In this document: positions 1-19,381 of the stretch, piece after piece
Position numbering within the stretch: position 1 is the first letter of the stretch
Layout: every line of letters starts with the position of its first letter
Origin: an uncultured Elusimicrobia bacterium
GTDB taxonomy: Bacteria > Elusimicrobiota > Elusimicrobia > 2-01-FULL-59-12
Reading direction: 5' to 3'
Assembly: GCA_963702895.1 (NCBI GenBank)
Contig: OY969767.1
Location: 800,001-864,000, forward strand
Length of the DNA stretch: 64,000 bases
Notes under the pieces: model-generated
What the model saw: the letters and a program-made list of their open reading frames with translations, nothing else
What the model was told of the DNA's origin: nothing
Database searches by the model: none
Made by a program: the position numbers and the translations under genes

Positions 1-8
1 CAAAGTTT

Positions 9-2594
9 GTGCTTCATGAAACGGCAGAGTTTGGGATGAATGGTCAAAGCGTCAGCCATGAAGTCCTGGAAGAGAACGGGTTGGATGCCGATGGCGATTC
101 CAACATCACGCTCATGCAGCTCTATAAAAAGTTCTCTCAATTTATCCCGACGATCGAACAAGAACTGATTAATCATCATGGACGTCGTCAGGAAGCTGAA
201 TTCGCTATGAAGGCTTGGAAGTATATTCGCGAACAACGCCAAGAAGCCCCCGCTGATCCCGAGAAGCTCATAGAAACCAACGGGCCGCTAGACGAGCCTG
301 GTCGCCCAGCAAGACCCGATCTTCATATGGGAAATCTGACTCCTGAGGATATTAAGGTGATTAGTTCCTTCGCGCGGCGTAAGGGTCTAGTACCACAGAC
401 CGGTTTTCGCCCTGCGAGATTACAGGACTTAGAACCCATAGACCCCACTCGTTCTCCTGACGAAGCGGTTCGAGCTCATTTGAATGGATTTGTGATTACC
501 CAGTTCTTCGATGGCGGAAATGCAAGTCGTATGAAAAAAGGGTTAGCAAGTCGAGGGTTGAACAACGTCTTAACAGCAACAGAAAACCTAGCATTACATT
601 TCCTGCCGCCCGGAAAAGTCTTGGATGGAGTTCCAGATCCAATTTACTGGGGGGCCAGAACTCTCTTGCGCCTCAATCAATCGGTTCGGAAGTTGGCAAG
701 AAATAACCCTAAATACGGTGTTTCGGAGCTGCAGGCCTTAAAAAATCAGAGAATCATTCTCCATGTGAATGATCAAATGTTGCCATATATCGAGCAAGAT
801 TTACTTGACCACTATTTCTATGGGTTTGAACCAGAGAACATCTATATCCTGGTCAGTCGTACATATAACAAGCTGGTCTACGATGCTAAGTTAAAGTTGT
901 GGGTCCAAGGAAGAATGAATGAAGACCCTGACTCGCAGTCTGTGCTGGGCAACGGCACCCCCATCGAAATGTTGCTAGAGGACAGACAAGTTTATAATGC
1001 CTCCAGCCTCACGGGGCCGTTCCATATTCTGGAACCCAGCCTGTTAAGCCTCCTAAGGGCGCTCTATGAACAGGACCGTTACTCCGTTCAAGGATTAGTC
1101 CCTTATATTCGACAGGTCCGGATCAACAACATAAAGGCATGGGATCCTCAAGTCATAGAATTGGACCGTTCCGCTTTTATCATCGATCGAATTCGGCATG
1201 GAATAGGAAATGTCATAGAAATGGTGGAGAACCCTCCTCTGTATGATTCCGAAGATGAAAAACAAAAGGCTTTGCGTGGAGAATTGAAGCCTCAAAAAGG
1301 CGGTCTCCCTCAAGTCGTGATTGGCAAAGACCAGACCTATCTGATGGGGCCAGAAAAGCTTTCTTTGGCTGATCAAAAGAGCGATGCGGTGCAAACTGCC
1401 GGAGAAAAGGAGGCTTTGTCCCGAGAGGAACCTCCTATGCTCAATCTGATGGGGGGTGCTATGGGTTTGGAAGCACTCGCCGTAGCGCTTCCTAAACGAT
1501 TGGAGCCGGGATTTGTCCCTGGAAATGATCAGAGAGGAAATCTTCAATACATAGAAGGGCAATATGTCGTCTTGGAAATGACCCTGGATCTTGGGTTCCG
1601 CAGTTGCTTCTTTTATGTGCCAGGCGCTAAGCTGGAAGATTGGAAGGAAAGAAAATTGAGTCAGGACGACAAGGCTCGTGAAAAACTCGTCTTGATGAAC
1701 AGCGACAAGAAATTCCTCACACTGGCTGCTTATTATGGTTTTAATCCAGCACCCATTGCACAGCGTCACGGAGTGACTATCGAAGATTTAGTAAAGGAGC
1801 TGAGCGAATTCGAATCGAATGAGTACGGAATGGTCGATGTGAGATCTTCCAGAAGCCTGCTGGAAATAAGAGGCCGAGTTGTCGCCGCAGAGGCTATTTT
1901 GAAAGGAAGCACTTCGCCTTCTCCAGTCAACGGCGGTGCCCTGCGCCCCACCGAGGCGCACTGGTTTGCCGGGATCGCAGGAGCAGGCTTAGTCCTGGGA
2001 GCTCTGGTTCAGTTGCCTGTGATGCTCCTCGGCATCTTGGGCGCGTTTGCGGTCGCTGCAGCGGGTCAAGAAATCGCAGTTGTCTCGCGCGCTGTGGCAA
2101 CGCGTGATATCACGGTCCTCACATCTCAGCATCCCATCGCCTGGTATGACTTCACCACCCAGACCGAAGATGTTGAATCGGTACCGGCTATTGCGCGCGT
2201 CTTCGCTCACGCCCATGAGATGGCCAGGGCCTTGACCCAATCACGCGGTGCTGTGGCTCCTCGCTTGGTCGCTCCCTTGACGCTGCCTCTGGCGGTTTTG
2301 GATTACGCCGTGGCGGGTGTCTCTCATGGGATCAACCTGGCGCTTTCGAAGCTGACCCGTGGCCAGATCCCGGTTCCCGATCTGCAAATGTTGAAGAAGA
2401 TGAGGGACGAGCTGCCCAAAATTGAGCATCAGCTCGCTCCCACACGTCAAGCTTTAGCCCCACCTGCCAGCGGCGCATGGAAGAAGGTCTGGGCGGGCAT
2501 TCAAACACGGGCCGGCGCCGTCTGGAAGAACTCCAACGCCCGAACGGAAGCCGCTGAACTCGCCGCGCGAAGGGCTCTAACCACCGCCGCCTAA
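9..2594 (+). CDS. C-terminal part of a large protein (5' truncated by the window): UDP-sugar pyrophosphorylase (UDPGP/UAP)-like domain plus C-terminal membrane module
   Basis: Frame is open from the window edge. Motifs FFDGGNASR, YFYGFEPENIYIL, VLGNG, RINNI and QKGG occur in the order seen in UDPGP-type nucleotidyltransferases. Hydrophobic hairpin near the C-terminus; ends RRALTTAA. Confidence 0.6.
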   Translation: MLHETAEFGMNGQSVSHEVLEENGLDADGDSNITLMQLYKKFSQFIPTIEQELINHHGRRQEAEFAMKAWKYIREQRQEAPADPEKLIETNGPLDEPGRPARPDLHMGNLTPEDIKVISSFARRKGLVPQTGFRPARLQDLEPIDPTRSPDEAVRAHLNGFVITQFFDGGNASRMKKGLASRGLNNVLTATENLALHFLPPGKVLDGVPDPIYWGARTLLRLNQSVRKLARNNPKYGVSELQALKNQRIILHVNDQMLPYIEQDLLDHYFYGFEPENIYILVSRTYNKLVYDAKLKLWVQGRMNEDPDSQSVLGNGTPIEMLLEDRQVYNASSLTGPFHILEPSLLSLLRALYEQDRYSVQGLVPYIRQVRINNIKAWDPQVIELDRSAFIIDRIRHGIGNVIEMVENPPLYDSEDEKQKALRGELKPQKGGLPQVVIGKDQTYLMGPEKLSLADQKSDAVQTAGEKEALSREEPPMLNLMGGAMGLEALAVALPKRLEPGFVPGNDQRGNLQYIEGQYVVLEMTLDLGFRSCFFYVPGAKLEDWKERKLSQDDKAREKLVLMNSDKKFLTLAAYYGFNPAPIAQRHGVTIEDLVKELSEFESNEYGMVDVRSSRSLLEIRGRVVAAEAILKGSTSPSPVNGGALRPTEAHWFAGIAGAGLVLGALVQLPVMLLGILGAFAVAAAGQEIAVVSRAVATRDITVLTSQHPIAWYDFTTQTEDVESVPAIARVFAHAHEMARALTQSRGAVAPRLVAPLTLPLAVLDYAVAGVSHGINLALSKLTRGQIPVPDLQMLKKMRDELPKIEHQLAPTRQALAPPASGAWKKVWAGIQTRAGAVWKNSNARTEAAELAARRALTTAA

Positions 2595-2633
2595 AGCGAC
2601 CGTGGCAGAGTCAATAAAGGGCCCTCCAGTCAT

Positions 2634-2701
2634 ATGGGCCTATTGGTCCTGAATAATTAGCTTTTCGCTCTATTCATGCAAAGCTCTGATTACCCTATAC
2701 T
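2634..2701 (+). promoter_or_regulatory. Putative activator box (ATGGGCCTATTG) plus -10 TATACT upstream of the giant protein gene
   Basis: Box starts at 2634, TATACT at 2696-2701. The same 62-nt offset recurs at 9374 and 49686. Confidence 0.5.
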
Positions 2702-2780
2702 TTTCTATGCAAGCTCCCGTTCAGAAGTTGCGACGATGATCAATCGCCGGAACGATGGCGCATCTCAAAAGGAGAATCAC

Positions 2781-5700
2781 ATGGCACGTCCCTTCTTCAA
2801 CAAAGCCCAGCGCGAACGCTTCACCAAGGCCCTCAGCCTTACGCTTTGCCTTGCTTTCATTTTCAGCTCCTCGGTGACCCCGGCCGCAGCAAGCGTGGAA
2901 AACCCCGCCGCACAGGCGGAGTCCGCCCGCGTCGCCCAGTTGACGCCCCCCAGCGAGCTGGGGACCGTGGTGGACGCGCACATTGCGTCCCAAGATCTGA
3001 GTTCTCCGCTCGTCATCCATATCCAGGATCTGCACGCCAATTTCGATGTTCAAACCAAGATCGCCCGGCTCATCGAGTTCTACGATTCGCACCTCCCTCC
3101 CTATAAGGTAGCGGTGGAAGGCGCGGAAGGCCCGATCACCGCGACCCAATTGGGCAAAGTGTCTGACCGCGCTTTTAAGACCAAGGTCTGTGACCGCCTC
3201 ATGAAAAACGCCGAAATCACGGGAACGGAGTACTTCTCGATCGTGAATGGCAAACCCGACCTGCTGTGGGGCGTGGAAGACCATCGCTACCATGAGGCCA
3301 ACATTGCTCTATTCCGGTCTACCTATAAGGGTAAGCGCGAACTCGCTCGCGCCCTGGGCAAGCTCCAGGCGGAATTTGCCCCTATTAAACAGAAGGCCTA
3401 TTCTCGATCCATGCGCAGGCTGGACCGAAAGGCCGCAGCGTACGAGTCTGGAAAAATCGATATTGTGAAATACATCCGTGTTCTGGTGAAACAGGCTTCC
3501 AAGCAGGGTATCGATATCGCCGGTCGCTATCCCGAGATTGCCAAGTGGACCGGATACGCCAAAGCCGATCAATACGCGAACATGGACAAGCTCATGACTG
3601 AGCAAGCGGCCTTGTTGACAGAAGTCCAAACCAGCCTTGCTAAGACAGACCTGCAACGTAACATCGCCTCAACATCCGTTGAGCTGGATGTGCTTCGCCG
3701 TATGTTGACGGAAGAAGTCACAACGGAAGAGGTCCGGCATCTGGCTCCAGAGCTGTCACAGGTGGCCGGCCGGGCGCAGTTTCTCATGGATCAAGCTGGG
3801 GTTTCTTATGAAAAGCAGGGCGCGGCGGATCTCGTGAGCGCCAGCCTCGACTTTTATGCCGTGGCCTTGCTCCGCGATCAACATCTAACGGAAAATGCCT
3901 TAAAACTCATTCAAAGCCCGACCTCTAAAACCCACCATGTAATTTTAGTCGCCGGTGGGTTTCATACGCCGGGGATCACGAAGATCCTGAATCAAAAAGG
4001 TGTTTCCTACATCACCGTCGCGCCCAACGTCACAACCCACACTGCCAGGGACAAACAGCTTTATGTTGCCCGACTCATGGGACGGCATGGGGATCCGGAC
4101 GATATGGCTGCTGGAAATGACATGCTTTCGTGGATGCTCAATACGCCATTCGGTGAGTGGGTCGTGGCCAGGACAGCGCTTCGAACGGCACAGGCTGACA
4201 AAAACCCTCAGATGGCGCGTGAAGTAACGGATGTTTTCGGAGCTCAGACGGCCCTTGCCGTTAATCCGCCTCCCCGTGGGAAACTGCGCGACTACACGGG
4301 CGCGGGTAACACCTCGATTCATATAGCGCTCGATCGTGCAAGAGGTTTATTCTACAGTGACAAATCTGCGGCCGCGTTGCTCCTCTGGGAGCTCAGAGAC
4401 GACATTGCTCTGGCAATGAAATCGAATGATATCGTCCCTTTAATGGATAAATGGAATGAACGGTATCCCCTGAGCAGTGTCAGTGACCCAGGCGTTGATC
4501 TAATGCTGTCAGACCTTCCCCGGGCGTTCGAGGATGCCAACCTACTATTGAGTAGTCTCCCACCCGAGATTGTTGGAGAGGCTGCTTTGGCCATCGCAGC
4601 GCGTGTCCAAGCTGCTGCCGCAGCCAAACAACGAGAAGGAGCGGTGGCGAAACGCGTGACGGCAACAGTCCTGGAATACAATGTGGGTCATTTGTTCGGA
4701 GATGGAACCTTTACGCTCACCGACGCTGTGCTCGATGCCGCGCGTAAAGTTCTGCAGGAACTCAAAGACGCGGGAGTGATCAAAGACTTTGTGGTGAATG
4801 GGTTTGGGCAGGATCTTCACATGCAAATTAATACCTATGGCCGAGGAACGCAAGACCTAACAGTCCAAAGCGTGGGACTCAAAGCGGCACAAGCGGCTGT
4901 TCGAGCGGGTAAGGAGGCGGGCTTGCTGAGGCCGGTTACTTTGGACGATATTACGGCTGACTTCTTTGATCTGAATGCCGCGATGCAGGTTGAAGCCCTG
5001 TTGACACGTCATTCGGAGTTGCCTTTTACGGAACGTGGAGCCGAGCCGATCTCCGTTTCAAAGGCGATCGGAGGCGGAATTGGGTTCTTTAACCGCGCTC
5101 TGGTGAACCTCTATTTTTCCGAGAACGTGTCGGGACCTCGACTGGAAGGCGCCGGGGTCTTTTTTACCGTGGAAAGCGCTGCGGATATACGCGCGGGCAA
5201 CAAGAACCGCAAAGTCTATGTGTTTGGTGATACGCCTTCGTGGCCGGAAGACGGCATTGATTTAGTCCGCCCCAACAGCGACCGGCCTCTCCATGTGCGG
5301 AAAGATCAAATCGGGACGTTTAAGCAGATGTCCGTTCTGATTGGCGATCCTACGACGTGGGTTGTCACGGCCGTCTACGCGGCGCAGGGACGCATGGCGG
5401 AAAGCAAAGAGACAAGAGTGGAACCCATAGCGGTCGTTGGGGTGGAGCGTGTTTACCCGACCAACACGGCTATTCCAACGAGCCCGGTATTGATTGTTCG
5501 CGGACAAGGCGGCGCTCCGGCCATTGGGGAAACTCATATGGCCACGTCAAAGTTTTATTTTGGTCCTGGTGGTGACCACGAAGGGTATTACACGGGATTA
5601 CTTCCTGTAACGCTTGAACAGGCACGCTCGATGCCAGATACCCACATGGTGACCAAAGTCGCCACGTATCACTATCAATCGAAGAAAAAAGGTGAGATGC

Positions 5701-7853
5701 CTCACGGGGACATTTATGACCAAATGGCCGCCGACACAAAGGAGACGGTCGCCCTCCAAACCTCGGCCATGGGGCTCGTGCGCGAAGCAGCGGAGGTCGA
5801 CAACATGGTCCCCTTTATGACGACGGATGAGGCCGAGCGCCAAATGGCTCCTGTGCGCACACGCGTGGCCGATCGTTTCGAACCAGTGCCGGATTATAAA
5901 AAGGGCGAAAAGGATCCTAAAGTTGATAGCGCCAATGCCTTATCGAAGGGTCGCACGCTCTCCGATATCAAAGCGGATGCGGGCGGAAAAGTTGGGCATA
6001 CCGTGGTTCCGAGCTACTTTATTCCTGTGGCCGAAGCCAGTCTCCAGGCCGCCAAGGAAAGCGGTCTTATCGACGATTACAAGGTGTTCTATGCCGGTGA
6101 CGATCTGCACTTGCTCATCACGCATAATCACGGGATCGATAGCAGCATCGTTCATACATTAGCCTGGGAAACATTCATGCGGATTATTTGGGTGGCGAAA
6201 TCCTTGGAGGATAAATGGTATGGATTGGGTCAGGATTTCCCTAATATGCGCGGCCGCCCTGTACACCAAGACGCTAAACTCAATGATGCTTTCATGGCTC
6301 TCTTGAAGGAGAAGCTTCCTCGGGAGCAGTTGATGCAATGGGGTGTCTTGGAATACGCTTACAAGAACCAGACGCCCGTGCAAGGTGAAAGCCCGTTCTC
6401 GGGTAATGTGCAAGGTCAGGGACCTGGATTTGCCGAAATCAATATTCCCGATGAAGGTCCCGTGACCTTCGGTATTTTCGCCGCCGATAAAGCAGGTCCG
6501 GATGCTTTCAATGTTCCTTTGTGGTATGCCCTGCGCAAAGCGGCAGAAGAAGGAACCCTCTCAAGACAATTCGGCGATGTCATTGCCGAAGTCTGGGATA
6601 TTCATCATGCTCAACGCGGAGACTTTAGCTATGCTAACGAAAAGGCGACGCTTCAGGCCTTATTGGCTCCGACGCATCTGAACAGCGTGAAGCGGATCTG
6701 GCAGGCGGGTGCGTCACGGATCCTCGCGGCGCTCTCTGTTGAAAAGCTCGGAATCATCGCAGGGGGCGAATACGTTGGGAAGGACGACCCCGTCTTGATA
6801 GCGACGCCGGAGATCATTAAGGGGTTCTTTCAATTCGCGCGCGACCACTTCTACATGACCCAGGGCAACGCGCGCGGTTCGCATAACGCAGCTCCGAAGC
6901 CCCGCTCATTAAGAGATGGAATCGCAACCGTGAATAGCAAGCCGGTTCAGCTGGGACTGATGGTGCAAGTTGATGGAAAGAACGGTTTGATTGTCAAAGA
7001 TATGTTTGATGACCCAACCTTTCAGAACGCGTATGACCGAGTGGACCGGATCAATAAAGAAGTCTGGAATGCACAAGGCCTCTCCGGCGGGCTCGTCAGC
7101 GTTCCGGCAGCCCAGGTGGAAGCAAACTACCCACTCAGAAAAGAATTGGAGAAGATCACAGGCGAGAATTCACCACATGCAATCGCAACAACCGTGACGA
7201 CACGAGAGGTCTATAACCAGATCGCGGCCGCCAACCGGCCGATCCGGTCGCTGGCCTTCTTAGCTCTTGGCGTCGCCATGACCTTTTTCGGTCCGGTGAT
7301 GGCCGTTGTCGGGTCGATCTACGCGGCCTATCACCTGGTGGCGTTCGGTGCGGGAATGTTTCAAACTCACGGCAATCTCTTCGCCCGCGCGGCGACGCAC
7401 GACAACTGGAAGAACGTGAGTTTCGCGCTTTTTGGCGAGGAAGCGGCGCATGAAGGCCTTTCGCGGATTCCAATCGTCGGCGCCTGGTTGTCCGGCGATT
7501 TGAGAAGCACGGTCCCCGCCAACCGGCGAGTCCTCGGAGCCTTGGCCGGGGCTTGGGATGAAACGTTTGGCGAAGTGTTCAGTAACGCCGTAGCGCCGTT
7601 GCTGATGCTCACGGCCGCTCTAAGCGCTCTCCTCGTGCGGCCGATCGTCAACCGGGGTCTGGTGCCCGACGCCCGGATCAATTCAGGTCTGGTGGGCGGC
7701 ATCGAAGCTCTCAGTCAAGCAAAGGCAATGCTAATGGACCTCACACAGCTTACGGAATGGGCCATTCAGTCCCTCAGGAACGCGGGTGTAAGTGCGAGAG
7801 AAATTGAAGCGATCCAGCAACGTGGCCGACAGGCGATTCTTCGGGCGGCCTGA
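2781..7853 (+). CDS. Giant (~1690 aa) secreted/membrane protein: signal peptide, HIQDLH...GGFH N-terminal domain, one degenerate and one intact class V FBP aldolase/phosphatase domain, C-terminal TM module
   Basis: AGGAG RBS at 2770-2774 before ATG 2781; hydrophobic leader. FBPA/ase motifs IKADAGGKVGH, AGDDLHL, YGLGQD, FSGNVQG, ADKAGP, GEYVGKDDPV, RGSH. Confidence 0.8.
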   Translation: MARPFFNKAQRERFTKALSLTLCLAFIFSSSVTPAAASVENPAAQAESARVAQLTPPSELGTVVDAHIASQDLSSPLVIHIQDLHANFDVQTKIARLIEFYDSHLPPYKVAVEGAEGPITATQLGKVSDRAFKTKVCDRLMKNAEITGTEYFSIVNGKPDLLWGVEDHRYHEANIALFRSTYKGKRELARALGKLQAEFAPIKQKAYSRSMRRLDRKAAAYESGKIDIVKYIRVLVKQASKQGIDIAGRYPEIAKWTGYAKADQYANMDKLMTEQAALLTEVQTSLAKTDLQRNIASTSVELDVLRRMLTEEVTTEEVRHLAPELSQVAGRAQFLMDQAGVSYEKQGAADLVSASLDFYAVALLRDQHLTENALKLIQSPTSKTHHVILVAGGFHTPGITKILNQKGVSYITVAPNVTTHTARDKQLYVARLMGRHGDPDDMAAGNDMLSWMLNTPFGEWVVARTALRTAQADKNPQMAREVTDVFGAQTALAVNPPPRGKLRDYTGAGNTSIHIALDRARGLFYSDKSAAALLLWELRDDIALAMKSNDIVPLMDKWNERYPLSSVSDPGVDLMLSDLPRAFEDANLLLSSLPPEIVGEAALAIAARVQAAAAAKQREGAVAKRVTATVLEYNVGHLFGDGTFTLTDAVLDAARKVLQELKDAGVIKDFVVNGFGQDLHMQINTYGRGTQDLTVQSVGLKAAQAAVRAGKEAGLLRPVTLDDITADFFDLNAAMQVEALLTRHSELPFTERGAEPISVSKAIGGGIGFFNRALVNLYFSENVSGPRLEGAGVFFTVESAADIRAGNKNRKVYVFGDTPSWPEDGIDLVRPNSDRPLHVRKDQIGTFKQMSVLIGDPTTWVVTAVYAAQGRMAESKETRVEPIAVVGVERVYPTNTAIPTSPVLIVRGQGGAPAIGETHMATSKFYFGPGGDHEGYYTGLLPVTLEQARSMPDTHMVTKVATYHYQSKKKGEMPHGDIYDQMAADTKETVALQTSAMGLVREAAEVDNMVPFMTTDEAERQMAPVRTRVADRFEPVPDYKKGEKDPKVDSANALSKGRTLSDIKADAGGKVGHTVVPSYFIPVAEASLQAAKESGLIDDYKVFYAGDDLHLLITHNHGIDSSIVHTLAWETFMRIIWVAKSLEDKWYGLGQDFPNMRGRPVHQDAKLNDAFMALLKEKLPREQLMQWGVLEYAYKNQTPVQGESPFSGNVQGQGPGFAEINIPDEGPVTFGIFAADKAGPDAFNVPLWYALRKAAEEGTLSRQFGDVIAEVWDIHHAQRGDFSYANEKATLQALLAPTHLNSVKRIWQAGASRILAALSVEKLGIIAGGEYVGKDDPVLIATPEIIKGFFQFARDHFYMTQGNARGSHNAAPKPRSLRDGIATVNSKPVQLGLMVQVDGKNGLIVKDMFDDPTFQNAYDRVDRINKEVWNAQGLSGGLVSVPAAQVEANYPLRKELEKITGENSPHAIATTVTTREVYNQIAAANRPIRSLAFLALGVAMTFFGPVMAVVGSIYAAYHLVAFGAGMFQTHGNLFARAATHDNWKNVSFALFGEEAAHEGLSRIPIVGAWLSGDLRSTVPANRRVLGALAGAWDETFGEVFSNAVAPLLMLTAALSALLVRPIVNRGLVPDARINSGLVGGIEALSQAKAMLMDLTQLTEWAIQSLRNAGVSAREIEAIQQRGRQAILRAA

Positions 7854-7912: not shown

Positions 7913-7947
7913 GAGATCCTCGTCGAAAGACGGGGATTTCTTGTTTT
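7913..7947 (+). terminator. Rho-independent terminator
   Basis: GAGATCCTCGTC-GAAA-GACGGGGATTTC stem followed by TTGTTTT, downstream of the giant gene. Confidence 0.7.
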
Positions 7948-7953
7948 AGGGGG

Positions 7954-9341
7954 GAGTTCTTGTCAAATGTACTGGAAATAGGGCAACGCCCCTTTCGTTG
8001 AATGTCTCTTAGGCCGCGACCTCCAGCTTCTCTCTTTCCACAAATAGTACTTCAACCAATTCCGGCTTTGCGATCGGCTTCCAGAACTGCGCTAAACGCT
8101 CAATGACCTTGTAGACGAATGCCACGCCTGTTCGGGATTTCTGGAACCGGCGCACGACTCGCGTCCGCAACCGCACTCCCGCGAAGACCGACTCAATCGG
8201 ATTGCTCGTCTTCAAATGGACCCAGTGCTCCTTCGGAAAGTCGAAGTACCTCAGCAACGTGTCATGATCCTTGCGCACACAAGCCGCAGCCTTCGGATAG
8301 CGAATTTCAAGATCCTCAGCCAACAAGGCCAACTGGTTCTCCGCGTCTTCGCGGCGCTCCGCCTGATAGGCCACCCGCAGGCGATTGAGGACTTCATCCT
8401 GCTTAGCCTTCGGCACTTTATCCACGACGTTGCGCATCTTGTGCTTCCAACACCGTTGATCCTTCGCCGAGGGATACACCTCTGCCACCGCCTCCCAGAG
8501 CCCTCCGATCCCGTCGCCGATGACCAACAGCGGAGCAGGCATACCGCGCTCCGCGACCCCTCTCCAGATTTCCTTCCAGGAATCCCGGCTCTCCCGGTAG
8601 CCTTCCATCAGCGCGATCAGTTCCTTCTGGCCTTTCGCGTTGACGCCCACCAGAACCAGAAGCGCTGTGTTCTCTTTTTCCAGCCCCGCTTTTAAATACA
8701 CGCCGTCTGCCCAGACATAGGCGTAACGCGTCTCCGATAGGTCCCGGCGACTGAACGTAGCCAGGTCCGACTGAAACTTCGCCGATAGACGCAGGATCGT
8801 GCTGGCTGATAAGGTGGCTCCATCCCCGATCAGTGCTCGCAACGCCGGCTCAAAGTCCCGACTCGAGAGTCCCTCCAGGTACAGCCGCCGGAATAACTCC
8901 TCGACCCCTTCCGTCCGCCGCTGGTAGGGCCGCAAGATGCTCGACTCAAACTCGCCTCCGTCCACCTGGGGCACCGATAGCTTCAGCCCCGCCCCCAACA
9001 CCGTCACCTTCCGCTCCCGCGTTCCGTTCCGATAGCCTTTCTCCAGATTCTTCGCCCGTTCATAGCGCCGACGCTCTAAATACATCGTCACTTCTTCTTC
9101 CAGGGCCTCCACCAGCATCTTGCGCGCTCCTTCACGGGCCAGATAATCCACCATGCTCTCGCCTTTGTGCTGAGTCCCTTTCTCGTTTACAATGGTTTCC
9201 ATAACGGCGTCTCCTTTTCGTTTATTGTCCGCTCGAACGGACAGGTTTGTGTGTTTCAACGAAAGGGTACGCCGTTTCTATTTCCTAAGGCAAATCCTTC
9301 CTTGCCTTAAAACCTATTTCCAGCACTTTTGATGGTAACTC
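7954..9341 (-). mobile_element. IS256-family insertion sequence, copy 1 (1388 bp)
   Basis: Imperfect TIRs GAGTTCTTGTCAAATGTACTGGAAATAG / GAGTTACCATCAAAAGTGCTGGAAATAG; 9-bp target duplication TTTAGGGGG (7945-7953, 9342-9350). Confidence 0.95.
8009..9202 (-). CDS. IS256 (Mutator-family) DDE transposase
   Basis: YVWADGVY, IGDG, QRCWKHK and TSNPIES motifs; ATG at 9202 with AGGAG RBS (ORF extends to 9259). Confidence 0.95.
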   Translation of the reverse strand: METIVNEKGTQHKGESMVDYLAREGARKMLVEALEEEVTMYLERRRYERAKNLEKGYRNGTRERKVTVLGAGLKLSVPQVDGGEFESSILRPYQRRTEGVEELFRRLYLEGLSSRDFEPALRALIGDGATLSASTILRLSAKFQSDLATFSRRDLSETRYAYVWADGVYLKAGLEKENTALLVLVGVNAKGQKELIALMEGYRESRDSWKEIWRGVAERGMPAPLLVIGDGIGGLWEAVAEVYPSAKDQRCWKHKMRNVVDKVPKAKQDEVLNRLRVAYQAERREDAENQLALLAEDLEIRYPKAAACVRKDHDTLLRYFDFPKEHWVHLKTSNPIESVFAGVRLRTRVVRRFQKSRTGVAFVYKVIERLAQFWKPIAKPELVEVLFVEREKLEVAA

Positions 9342-17313: not shown

Positions 17314-17602
17314 GGGGGTGTAGCTCAGCATATGAAAGAAGGCGCGTTGCTGGGGGTGTAGCTCAGCTGGGAGAGCGCATCGTTCGCAACGATGAGGTCG
17401 CCGGTTCGATCCCGGTCACCTCCAGCAACGCGCTTCATTTGGGAGAGCCTCGCCAGACTACGGCGAGCCCGCCGGCTGTCTGGCGGGGGTCGCCGCGGCG
17501 ACAGGTCGAGGGTTCGTCCCGCATTCTTAGACTCTTACGATGCGGGACAGTCCCAACCCATAAGGATGGAGGAAGGTGGGACGAGCCCCTTCACCTCCAC
17601 CA
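17314..17602 (+). pseudogene. Split outer tRNA-Ala-like copy surrounding the intact tRNA-Ala
   Basis: Pieces 17314-17329, 17440-17448, 17488-17516 and 17584-17602 give a cloverleaf with G3:U70 and CCA but a collapsed anticodon loop. Confidence 0.75.
17352..17424 (+). tRNA. tRNA-Ala(CGC)
   Basis: GGGGGTG/CACCTCC acceptor with G3:U70, CATCG-TTCGCAA-CGATG, GGTTCGATCC; CCA not encoded. Confidence 0.95.
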
Positions 17603-17629
17603 ACTCCCCGTCTATTTCCAAATTCATCT

Positions 17630-19381
17630 ATGAGCTATCAAGTTCTTGCGCGTAAATATCGGCCTCAAACTTTTGAGGAAATCGTTGGCCAGGCGCACGT
17701 GGCCACGACGCTTGCCAATGCGCTCAAAAACCAGAAGGTCGCCCATGCCTACCTCTTCTCCGGGCCGCGCGGCGTCGGCAAGACCACCACCGCCAGGATC
17801 CTTGCGAAGGCCCTGAACTGCGTCAAAGGCCCAACCCCCGTTCCCTGCAATCAATGCGATTCCTGTCAGCGCATCGCGCAGGGGCAGGAGATCGTGGATG
17901 TGCTTGAAATTGATGCGGCCTCCAACCGCGGCATTGAGGAAATCCGCGAGCTCCGCGAGAACGTCCGGTACGCGCCGGCCCGCAGCCGGTTTAAGGTTTA
18001 CATCGTGGACGAGGCGCATCAGATCACCCATGACGCCTTCAACGCTTTTTTGAAAACGCTGGAGGAGCCGCCGGAGCACGCCATTTTTGTGCTGGCGACC
18101 ACGGAGTACCAGAAAATCCCCGCCACGATCCTCTCGCGCTGCCAGCTTTTTCGGTTCAAACGGGTCTCCGCAGAAGATATTTCCAAACACCTCGAAAAAA
18201 TCCTGGGCCGTGAAAAAATCACGTATGAAAGCGCTGCCCTTTCCCGGCTGGGACGTGCCGCCGGAGGGTCCCTGCGCGACGCGTTAAGCCTCCTGGATCA
18301 GGCGCTCGCGTATGCTTCGGGCGCGCTCTCGGCCAAACAGGTGGAAATGCTCTTGGGTTTTTTGCCGGAGGAATTTTTGGTGGGTTTTGTGTCCGCCCTT
18401 CTTGAGCGCAAGCCAGCGGGGATCCTCGAATGGGTGAAGCAGCTGGTGGAGGAGGGATGGGATATCCCTCAGTTTGTGCGAGACTTCAGGGAATTCTTAC
18501 GGCAGTCTTTGGTCGATCAACTTGGATCGTCCGACGCCCCACGCTCGACGTCAGACGTCGCACGCCGCACGTCGGAGGAGCTCTTGATCGCGGGGCGTTC
18601 CGTTTCTCTTCCGGAAGTTCTCCACATGATCAAAGTGATGGGGCAGTGCGTGGACGAAATGCGTTGGAACGACAACCCGCGCCTCGTCCTGGAACTCTAC
18701 AGCCTGCGACTGACGCAGCCGTTTGTGGACGCCGGTGTGTTGCTCAAGAGAATTGAAGAACTTGAGGAGAAGAGTGGCGTATCGGAGTATCGGAGTACCG
18801 GAGTATCGGAGTCACAGCCCAGTAGCGTAACGGAGTACCAGGGTACCGGCGTCCCGGGGTCACAGCCCAATAACGTAACGGAGTATCGGAGTGCCGGAGT
18901 ATCGGAGTCACGCCAAGGCCGTGACCCCGTGACCCCGTTACGCCGATACCCCGATACTGCTGTTACCCCGACACCCCGACACCCCGACACTCCGTTACAG
19001 GCCTCCGCCTCTGAATTGTGGAAGCGCCTGCTGGCTGAACTCTGGAAGAAGCCGACGGTCGCTTCCCATATGGAACGAGCGGCGCTCAAATCCGCGACGG
19101 ACAAAGTGTGGGTCATCGAGTTTGCGGACGCTTTTGCGCTGTCGACCATGGAGCGAAACAAAGTGTTTTTAACCGAGACGCTCGCGGTCCTGGCGGGACA
19201 GGCTCTTGAGCTGCGTCTTGTCCAAGGGGCTCCGGACCAGAGAGAACGGGATGACGCGACGGTAGTCGTGCCGTCTCCCGCTTCGGAAGGGCGTCCGGTT
19301 GTGGAGCAGAACGCTCATGTCCAAAAGGTTCTGGGTGTTTTTAAGGGGCGCGTTCGGGAGGAGGAGCGGCCTGCATCATGA
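17630..19381 (+). CDS. dnaX: DNA polymerase III subunit gamma/tau
   Basis: MSYQVLARKYRPQTF, GPRGVGKTT, EIDAASN, DEAH, SRCQ. Confidence 0.97.
   Translation: MSYQVLARKYRPQTFEEIVGQAHVATTLANALKNQKVAHAYLFSGPRGVGKTTTARILAKALNCVKGPTPVPCNQCDSCQRIAQGQEIVDVLEIDAASNRGIEEIRELRENVRYAPARSRFKVYIVDEAHQITHDAFNAFLKTLEEPPEHAIFVLATTEYQKIPATILSRCQLFRFKRVSAEDISKHLEKILGREKITYESAALSRLGRAAGGSLRDALSLLDQALAYASGALSAKQVEMLLGFLPEEFLVGFVSALLERKPAGILEWVKQLVEEGWDIPQFVRDFREFLRQSLVDQLGSSDAPRSTSDVARRTSEELLIAGRSVSLPEVLHMIKVMGQCVDEMRWNDNPRLVLELYSLRLTQPFVDAGVLLKRIEELEEKSGVSEYRSTGVSESQPSSVTEYQGTGVPGSQPNNVTEYRSAGVSESRQGRDPVTPLRRYPDTAVTPTPRHPDTPLQASASELWKRLLAELWKKPTVASHMERAALKSATDKVWVIEFADAFALSTMERNKVFLTETLAVLAGQALELRLVQGAPDQRERDDATVVVPSPASEGRPVVEQNAHVQKVLGVFKGRVREEERPAS
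18779..18998. repeat. In-frame octamer-based repeat (three 48-nt units plus inverted octamers) in the dnaX linker
   Basis: GTATCGGA-type 8-mers followed by CCGATACY/CCGACACC 8-mers. Confidence 0.8.

Follow-up and report, generated by a model that had tools for sequence, protein, structure and literature searches.

Two adjacent Elusimicrobia genes of a modular family with a shared leader, a TIKI-like head, exchangeable enzyme cargo, and a common alanine-ending terminus

We analyzed a 64,000-nucleotide (nt) stretch of DNA (the window) from an uncultured Elusimicrobia bacterium (assembly GCA_963702895.1, contig OY969767.1, positions 800,001 to 864,000), whose genome is a single contig of 2.72 Mb. 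Two long plus-strand open reading frames (ORFs), ending at 2594 and 7853 as claimed in a preliminary description, are here called genes 1 and 2. Both belong to a modular family in which a signal-peptide-like leader and a head of predicted TIKI fold precede exchangeable enzyme domains and a tail that usually ends in alanine. We propose, with a confidence just short of even, that such proteins are carriers whose cargo acts on the sugar phosphates or uridine triphosphate (UTP) of an attached partner cell.

Shared head, exchanged cargo, and terminal motif

Genes 1 and 2 share the leader and a head of ~400 amino acids (aa) (blastp E 2e-52), in agreement with the shared scaffold described earlier, and the gene 2 leader, its domain with QDLH, VEG, GVED, and GGFH motifs, and its FBPase_3 match (E 2e-73) were likewise recovered. 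The head opens ORFs that range from several hundred to more than 12,000 codons and was found in 77 of 251 genomes of the phylum and in 10 of 11 genomes of the family, with many copies per genome. A head model built from 32 sequences (predicted local distance difference test [pLDDT] score, 88.5) has a parallel beta-sheet core flanked by helices, as in the TIKI superfamily. In a wide VIA search, the five best of 48,161 chains were all TIKI-fold proteins, with Z scores of 8.8 to 7.7 (first unrelated row, 7.2): ChaN (2g5g; Z, 8.8; root mean square deviation [rmsd], 5.9; 182 residues aligned), 2qgm (8.0; 3.7; 149), HopBA1 (5t09; 8.0; 3.7; 163), EreC (6xcq; 7.9), and 2rad (7.7). We assign the TIKI fold because these five rows agree, the scores themselves being moderate.

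The two histidines, two acidic residues, and conserved arginine of the TIKI active site are present in the heads, where all 98 fully covered members (100 matched) conserve D/E, H, E, R, and H. They follow the same order (acidic-x-His, Glu, Arg, His), on like structural elements, as in ChaN, BcR135/136 (2rad/2qgm), EreC, HopBA1, and RRSP (E3900/H3902/E3930/R4001/H4030; PMC6254334), the mapping to RRSP being by order and secondary structure and not by superposition. Unlike these relatives, the head has a large helical insert, has Asp in place of the first Glu of RRSP, starts thousand-residue chains, occurs in many copies per genome, and stays far below the Pfam cut-off for ChaN (PF04187; 14.7 bits versus 27.7, with 1 of 32 members matched at E 0.032). 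A head profile gave no match to PDB sequences. The head may have hydrolase activity on peptide or ester bonds.

Two stand-alone leader-and-head genes for proteins of 337 and 351 aa (L018, G000:C1:272097-273152, and L017, C1:2368884-2369897) are syntenic in the family and carry no terminal motif; one adjoins pfk, a class I aldolase-type gene, PilT-like ATPases, and a cyclic nucleotide monophosphate-binding gene, and the other adjoins a gene for a 625-aa secreted protein. They are candidates for processing headless family members in trans. DnaX (window 17576) was dropped as a head relative, its match running only via a repeat insert. This repeat element is inserted in frame in coding sequences, including dnaX (window 17576-19381) and several heads, and its peptide is present in at least 24 of 2,066 genes.

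Exchange of the cargo is seen in L069, a protein of a same-family genome that is the best match to the gene 1 head (64%) and the second best to the gene 1 tail (49%), with no match to the HExxE domain or the cargo of gene 1. L069 thus keeps the gene 1 head and tail around another middle, which shows cargo swapping; together with a comparison of heads and bodies, it directly supports the modular family with swappable cargo previously put forward. In that comparison of 90 headed proteins, 100 pairs had head identities of 45% or more, and in 80 of them less than 30% of the bodies was shared. The L069 middle resembles a fucose pyrophosphorylase (Atlas, 0.91), which is a lead only, and a single-sequence PDB search with it returned nothing. 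Pfam families in the cargo of 50 headed ORFs include PGM, PGI, malate synthase with isocitrate lyase, aldose epimerase with GHMP kinase, PPDK, inositol monophosphatase, PP2C, and Lon, and 26 have no family at E 1e-5; with TIM added, the family cargo is rich in central metabolism. One headed protein (L080:181-5676) combines malate synthase and isocitrate lyase, two enzymes of the glyoxylate shunt.

Both proteins end in R-x-A-(L/I)-x-x-A-A, as described. Seventy-three closed, long, headed ORFs from other genomes were selected on head score and length without regard to how they end. Of these, 58 terminate in Ala, and in 56 the last two residues are (A/S/Q/N)-A (AA, 32; SA, 11; QA, 8; NA, 5), compared with 60 of 1,084 ordinary genes of at least 300 aa, and since kin among the 73 are not independent, the significance of this enrichment is overstated. 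A hydrophobic residue usually stands at position -5 of the motif. Among the 15 ORFs that do not end in Ala, two have assembly gaps, two end in QQ, and one ends in AG; most other exceptions look like frameshift read-through. A profile of the leader of headless members, with six seeds originally noticed through their ends, found five further genes at E<0.3, all five ending in AA or SA. Headless members (for example, G000:C1 93226-100263, 222921-228947, and 1401941-1427876) have a conserved leader, an F-x-x-Q-A-L motif, and an Ala-ending tail.

Of the common targeting tail suggested earlier, the last ~12 residues are shared and the ~230-aa C-terminal module is not. Between genes 1 and 2 this module gave a blastp E of 2.5, a gene 1 tail profile from seven homologues did not match gene 2 at E<10, and profile-profile comparison gave a probability of 7 to 14% with scores of 22.7 to 24.7 (control maxima with 60 membrane segments, 18.4 to 18.8). 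On these three comparisons the shared 230-aa tail was rejected, and the likeness of the long tails is marginal at best. The preliminary description had itself named failure of the C termini to align as grounds for giving up its model, and over the long module they do fail to align. The RAVATRD/RAATHD and AHE matches that it listed are not kept in P0047 (L173), the full-length orthologue of gene 2 (60 to 61% identity). The gene 1 tail is specific to the gene 1 subfamily (nine members, none from gene 2), and the gene 2 tail is a remote relative of a module found in two giants upstream (hhalign probability, 76%; E 2.4e-5; score, 35; control maxima, 16.6 to 18.8).

Proteins with an FlgD-Ig/T9SS-like C-terminal domain are encoded at G000:C1:725015-727143, 274459-277514, and 2189054-2232109, two of them adjoining PorV-like or barrel-like genes; they are predicted to form a second, separate C-terminal sorting system.

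Enzyme cargo of genes 1 and 2

Gene 2 carries a tandem fructose-1,6-bisphosphate (FBP) aldolase/phosphatase (PF01950; 247.9 bits against a cut-off of 25). Compared with canonical FBP aldolase/phosphatases (PF01950, NF041126; 1umg, 3t2b), copy 2 keeps the KADxGxxxGH, GDD, GQD, GN, ADK, YVGKDD, and RGSH motifs, presumably in their catalytic roles, and has a five-residue gap after GKDDPV in the alignment to 1umg. Gene 2 differs from these enzymes in being a pair of a dead and a live copy, of which only the dead one retains the RxQxG loop, and in being fused behind a leader and a head with no cysteine in the cassette. It is tandem, fused, and leader-bearing, and it did not reach the cut-off of the single-domain cytoplasmic equivalog NF041126 (240.6 bits versus 520). 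The RxQxG loop binds the substrate of the neighboring subunit. Among 59 double enzymes, the dead copy always has it and the live copy never does, and 18 of 19 rows scored as single-domain keep it in place. It is likely that the dead copy of gene 2 is a built-in partner subunit for the live copy; a literature search for the neighbor-subunit loop or a tandem form found no paper.

The dead-and-live pair was also considered as a trait unique to exported proteins. This was rejected, as stand-alone double enzymes (dead then live copy, complementary loop loss, ~850 to 900 aa, 41% identity to the gene 2 cassette) are common in Acidobacteriota, Binatia, Desulfobacterota-type, Poribacteria, Latescibacterota, and other genomes (Table 1); the motif rule used for them missed 12 of 70 loci. 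Within the phylum, 6 of 401 genomes had a PF01950 match, and the five besides that of gene 2 all have single-domain forms. Trees of the double enzymes did not settle the number and direction of fusion events: the first was built without Acidobacteriota-type rows, and in the second (9 fused, 13 of 50 stand-alone, and 4 canonical rows) long branches meet.

Profile and structure matches agree with the UDP-sugar pyrophosphorylase-like domain previously proposed for gene 1. HMMER linked this cargo to 44 other proteins, and its profile matched UDP-GlcNAc pyrophosphorylases in PDB (2yqc, E 3.5e-8). The cargo model (pLDDT, 91) had the UGPase 1z90 as its best Foldseek match (E 9e-13) and aligned with AGX2 in VIA (Z, 26.1; rmsd, 3.8; 358 residues). 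The cargo shares with eukaryote-type UDP-sugar pyrophosphorylases (UAP/AGX, UGPase, USP) the fold over ~350 residues and the UDPGP-family motifs (glycine loop, G(H/N)G, RIN(D/N), KGG, D(F/W)K), presumably with the same roles. It differs from them in its low identity (10 to 14%) and in occurring fused in carriers or in small leader-bearing proteins. No Pfam family was found on it and no UDPGP family (PF01704) in 41 homologues scanned; a word-index search gave no homologue, and a single-sequence PDB search gave nothing. Besides orthologous carriers, other long proteins have the domain together with PGM, hexokinase, or GT5, and it also exists by itself. The lower GC content noted for this region was confirmed at third codon positions (GC3), at 0.48 versus 0.76 in the head and 0.65 in the tail, which is below the 5th percentile of the genome (0.56). 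The small HExxE domain preceding it is kept in relatives at 23 to 38% identity and has no Pfam or NCBIfam match. P0016, P0018, P0023, and P0026 are small leader-bearing proteins without cysteine that resemble UDP-sugar pyrophosphorylases and stand alone.

Location of the carriers and interpretations of their function

Leaders and cysteine loss indirectly support the proposed export of the family. By a hydropathy rule, 70 of 78 headed ORFs have a leader-like stretch. Against a baseline of 1.05% Cys in 498 cytoplasm-like proteins, ~16 and ~17 cysteines would be expected in mature genes 1 and 2, and 2 in 1,494 and 1 in 1,650 residues were found. Export is supported because cysteine loss tracks the leader. 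Fused double FBP aldolase/phosphatases lack Cys in nine of nine cases and have a leader in all seven with a closed 5' end; the stand-alone forms have Cys in 50 of 50 cases and a leader in 0 of 50. Similarly, four of four leader-bearing stand-alone UDPGP-like proteins are without Cys, and eight others have one to eight. A Tad pilus was rejected as a dedicated export route because Tad does not co-distribute with heads: RcpC is present in 79 of 79 genomes of family f8, with heads in 0 of 79, and was not found in the head-bearing families f11 (0 of 5), f6 (0 of 2), and f16 (0 of 1).

The proposed carrier builds on the shared leader and head, the swapped cargo, the common terminal motif, the intact catalytic motifs in both cargoes, and the cysteine loss. 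Sec would probably export the head plus the cargo, because no hydrophobic segment lies between leader and cargo; neither gene has a hydrophobic window of at least 1.7 between head and tail, and the chain would be held by segments found near the C terminus only. It is conceivable, if somewhat doubtful, that the head is an endopeptidase which processes the chain, with the terminal helix as a sorting or processing signal; the head would then cut or release the cargo after export. The substrates (FBP, triose phosphates, UTP, and sugar-1-phosphates) would, slightly more probably than otherwise, come from an attached host or prey cell. The cargo enzymes appear surplus to the producer, because the genome also has stand-alone TIM, class I aldolase-type, and Pfk genes and six matches to NTP transferases, and PF01950 was not found in five same-family genomes; class II aldolase had no match in the genome.

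Several observations weigh against this carrier reading. The leader calls come from the hydropathy rule only, stand-alone double FBP aldolase/phosphatases are themselves Cys-poor (0.39%), and the fused ones represent about four lineages and not nine independent cases. The fold match of the head is moderate at its best Z of 8.8; Foldseek placed 2rad and 3b55 on top, but at a nonsignificant E of 0.017 and above. The TIKI fold also includes esterases and a haem binder, and reading by eye revealed no conserved cleavage motif following the head. Class I FBPase and GlpX had no match in the genome, leaving gene 2 as the only recognized FBPase, which counts against a pure surplus for the phosphatase.

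The carriers could alternatively be injected effectors in the style of MARTX, with hairpins that insert in the partner membrane and cargo that works in the partner cytoplasm. Many family cargoes need ATP, S-adenosylmethionine, UTP, or cytoplasmic targets (Lon, DnaJ, PP2C, sigma-70 region 4, methyltransferases), the TIKI relatives HopBA1 and RRSP are delivered effectors, and the last 300 aa of 19 of 21 same-family Ala-ending ORFs include a hydrophobic segment. However, such a C-terminal segment is missing from all 14 ORFs of the other class, and in 5 of 63 no hydrophobic segment follows the head. Injection is made unlikely further by the cysteine loss, which speaks for passage through or residence in an outer compartment, and by the lack of an identified delivery machine, Tad not co-distributing with the family. 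Leaders and cysteine loss would look the same if the exported enzymes served the producer alone, in sugar-phosphate salvage or UDP-sugar synthesis in the periplasm or at the surface, and the SLT, LysM, and glycosyltransferase domains of other members would suit such a role. Yet UTP and FBP are expected outside a cytoplasm only where a cell is lysed or leaking, and rapid cargo turnover fits conflict or host adaptation better than housekeeping; we regard service to the producer alone as distinctly unlikely.

For giants with transmembrane (TM) segments only, a preprint (10.64898/2026.06.07.730766) retains a cytoplasmic reading. Applied here, the leader would be a membrane anchor or be bypassed, the enzyme would be tethered in the cytoplasm, and the Ala end would be an ssrA-like degradation tag. 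Both genes end in AA, as does the transfer-messenger RNA tag of the genome (ALAA), an S41 peptidase is present, and gene 2 is the sole FBPase match. We nevertheless find this very unlikely, as 24 of the 56 matching ends are SA, QA, or NA and not AA, cysteine loss tracks the leader, and stand-alone aldolase-type and Pfk genes exist, the Pfk with residues that we take to be those of the reversible pyrophosphate type.

The carrier proposal can be widened to a general Elusimicrobiota frame, in which a leader, a self-processing TIKI protease head, and an Ala-helix signal would place captured enzymes of central metabolism in a host cell or up against it and divert the sugar phosphates of that host. 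Oligomeric enzymes would be acquired as single-chain dead-and-live pairs and would lose cysteines to survive export. We consider this wider version rather unlikely.

The locus and its relation to known giant proteins

Genes 1 and 2 are the last of an array of five long plus-strand ORFs (4,068, 12,887, 3,012, 1,529, and 1,725 codons; Table 1). The start of gene 1, placed at 9 in the preliminary description, lies 1,995 nt upstream of the window; its full-length relatives are P0002, P0003, P0034, P0039, L068, and L076. Gene 2 most likely starts at ATG 2781, to judge from the AAGGAG site preceding it. A terminator-like hairpin closes the array, by a pattern that found 10 sites versus 11.5 expected by chance, and a promoter scan of the locus found no promoter. 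Directly 3' of the array is an IS256-family transposase (window 8009-9259). A Tad locus lies ~8 to 14 kb upstream of the array, and just upstream of it are two adjacent 740-aa ORFs without a Pfam match (L138, G000:C1:698365-702806).

Table 1. Coordinates of the features of genes 1 and 2 and of related loci (window positions unless another locus is named)
Feature	Position	Strand	Remarks
Gene 1, window part	3..2594	+	Full ORF 1,529 aa, G000:C1:798005-802594; leader and TIKI-like head upstream of window
Gene 1 small HExxE-motif domain	3..329	+	aa ~667-775; seen in sequence
Gene 1 cargo, UDP-sugar pyrophosphorylase (UAP/UGPase/USP) fold	330..1799	+	aa 776-1265
Gene 1 tail	1956..2324	+	Hydrophobic hairpin, (H/E)ExxH-like motif, APL hydrophobic helix
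Gene 1 terminal helix ending Ala-Ala	2556..2594	+	Family-wide C-terminal motif
Gene 2	2781..7853	+	1,690 aa from ATG 2781; open frame from 2676
Gene 2 signal-peptide-like leader	2781..2894	+	Basic, hydrophobic, small-residue end; hydropathy rule
Gene 2 TIKI/ChaN/Ere-like head	2928..4115	+	D118, H120, E148, R400, H430 (numbering from 2676)
FBP aldolase/phosphatase copy 1	4638..5945	+	Catalytic motifs lost, ERxxEP and RxQxG loop kept; E 4e-14 to ST0318
FBP aldolase/phosphatase copy 2	5946..7154	+	Motifs intact, RxQxG loop deleted; E 1.8e-38 to 1umg
Gene 2 tail	7242..7646	+	Hydrophobic hairpin, EExxH, APL helix
Gene 2 terminal helix ending Ala-Ala	7815..7853	+	
Terminator-like hairpin closing array	7913..7940	+	L002:10013-10040; pattern match only
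Stand-alone double FBP aldolase/phosphatase loci	L253-L313 (e.g., L253:4001-6676), L200:1415-4096		

Exported glycolytic domains as a general idea are already in print for the giants of Omnitrophota. One preprint (10.1101/2023.11.21.568195) assigns TIM, FBPase, aldolase, and PGM domains to parts of these proteins that are predicted to lie outside the cell, and it describes their N termini as generally without identifiable domains; secretion or pilus genes nearby are reported there and in 10.64898/2026.06.07.730766, which defines multi-enzyme giants with a signal peptide and TM segments and in whose main text the words "Tiki" and "motif" do not occur. Elusimicrobiota are described as rich in huge proteins in PMC11573180, and a word look-up in 10.1101/765248 and PMC11257099 gave no mention of giant or large proteins. 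No TIKI head or terminal motif for such proteins was apparent in the literature searched, a scope that excluded bioRxiv supplements and most subscription papers.

With archaeovorins and "multi-enzyme metabolic cluster" giants, genes 1 and 2 have in common a leader, hydrophobic segments, and cytoplasm-type enzymes, including sugar-metabolism domains behind an export leader. They lack the other archaeovorin traits, namely a length of 30,000 aa or more, numerous TM segments (two hydrophobic regions in each of the two genes), and a SecA-like domain (no SecA family match). They are 1.5 to 1.7 thousand aa long, versus 10 to 147 thousand in the Omnitrophota giants, and have one cargo each and two or three hydrophobic segments.

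The findings bear on the function of the giant multi-enzyme proteins in Omnitrophota and Elusimicrobiota and on the face of the membrane at which they are active. The giants are too large to express, whereas genes 1 and 2 encode small members with a single cargo each, a head predicted to be catalytic, a putative terminal signal of 12 residues, and enzymes that can be assayed, so that export, self-cleavage, and cargo activity would each be directly testable, with the stand-alone double FBP aldolase/phosphatase as a natural cytoplasmic control.

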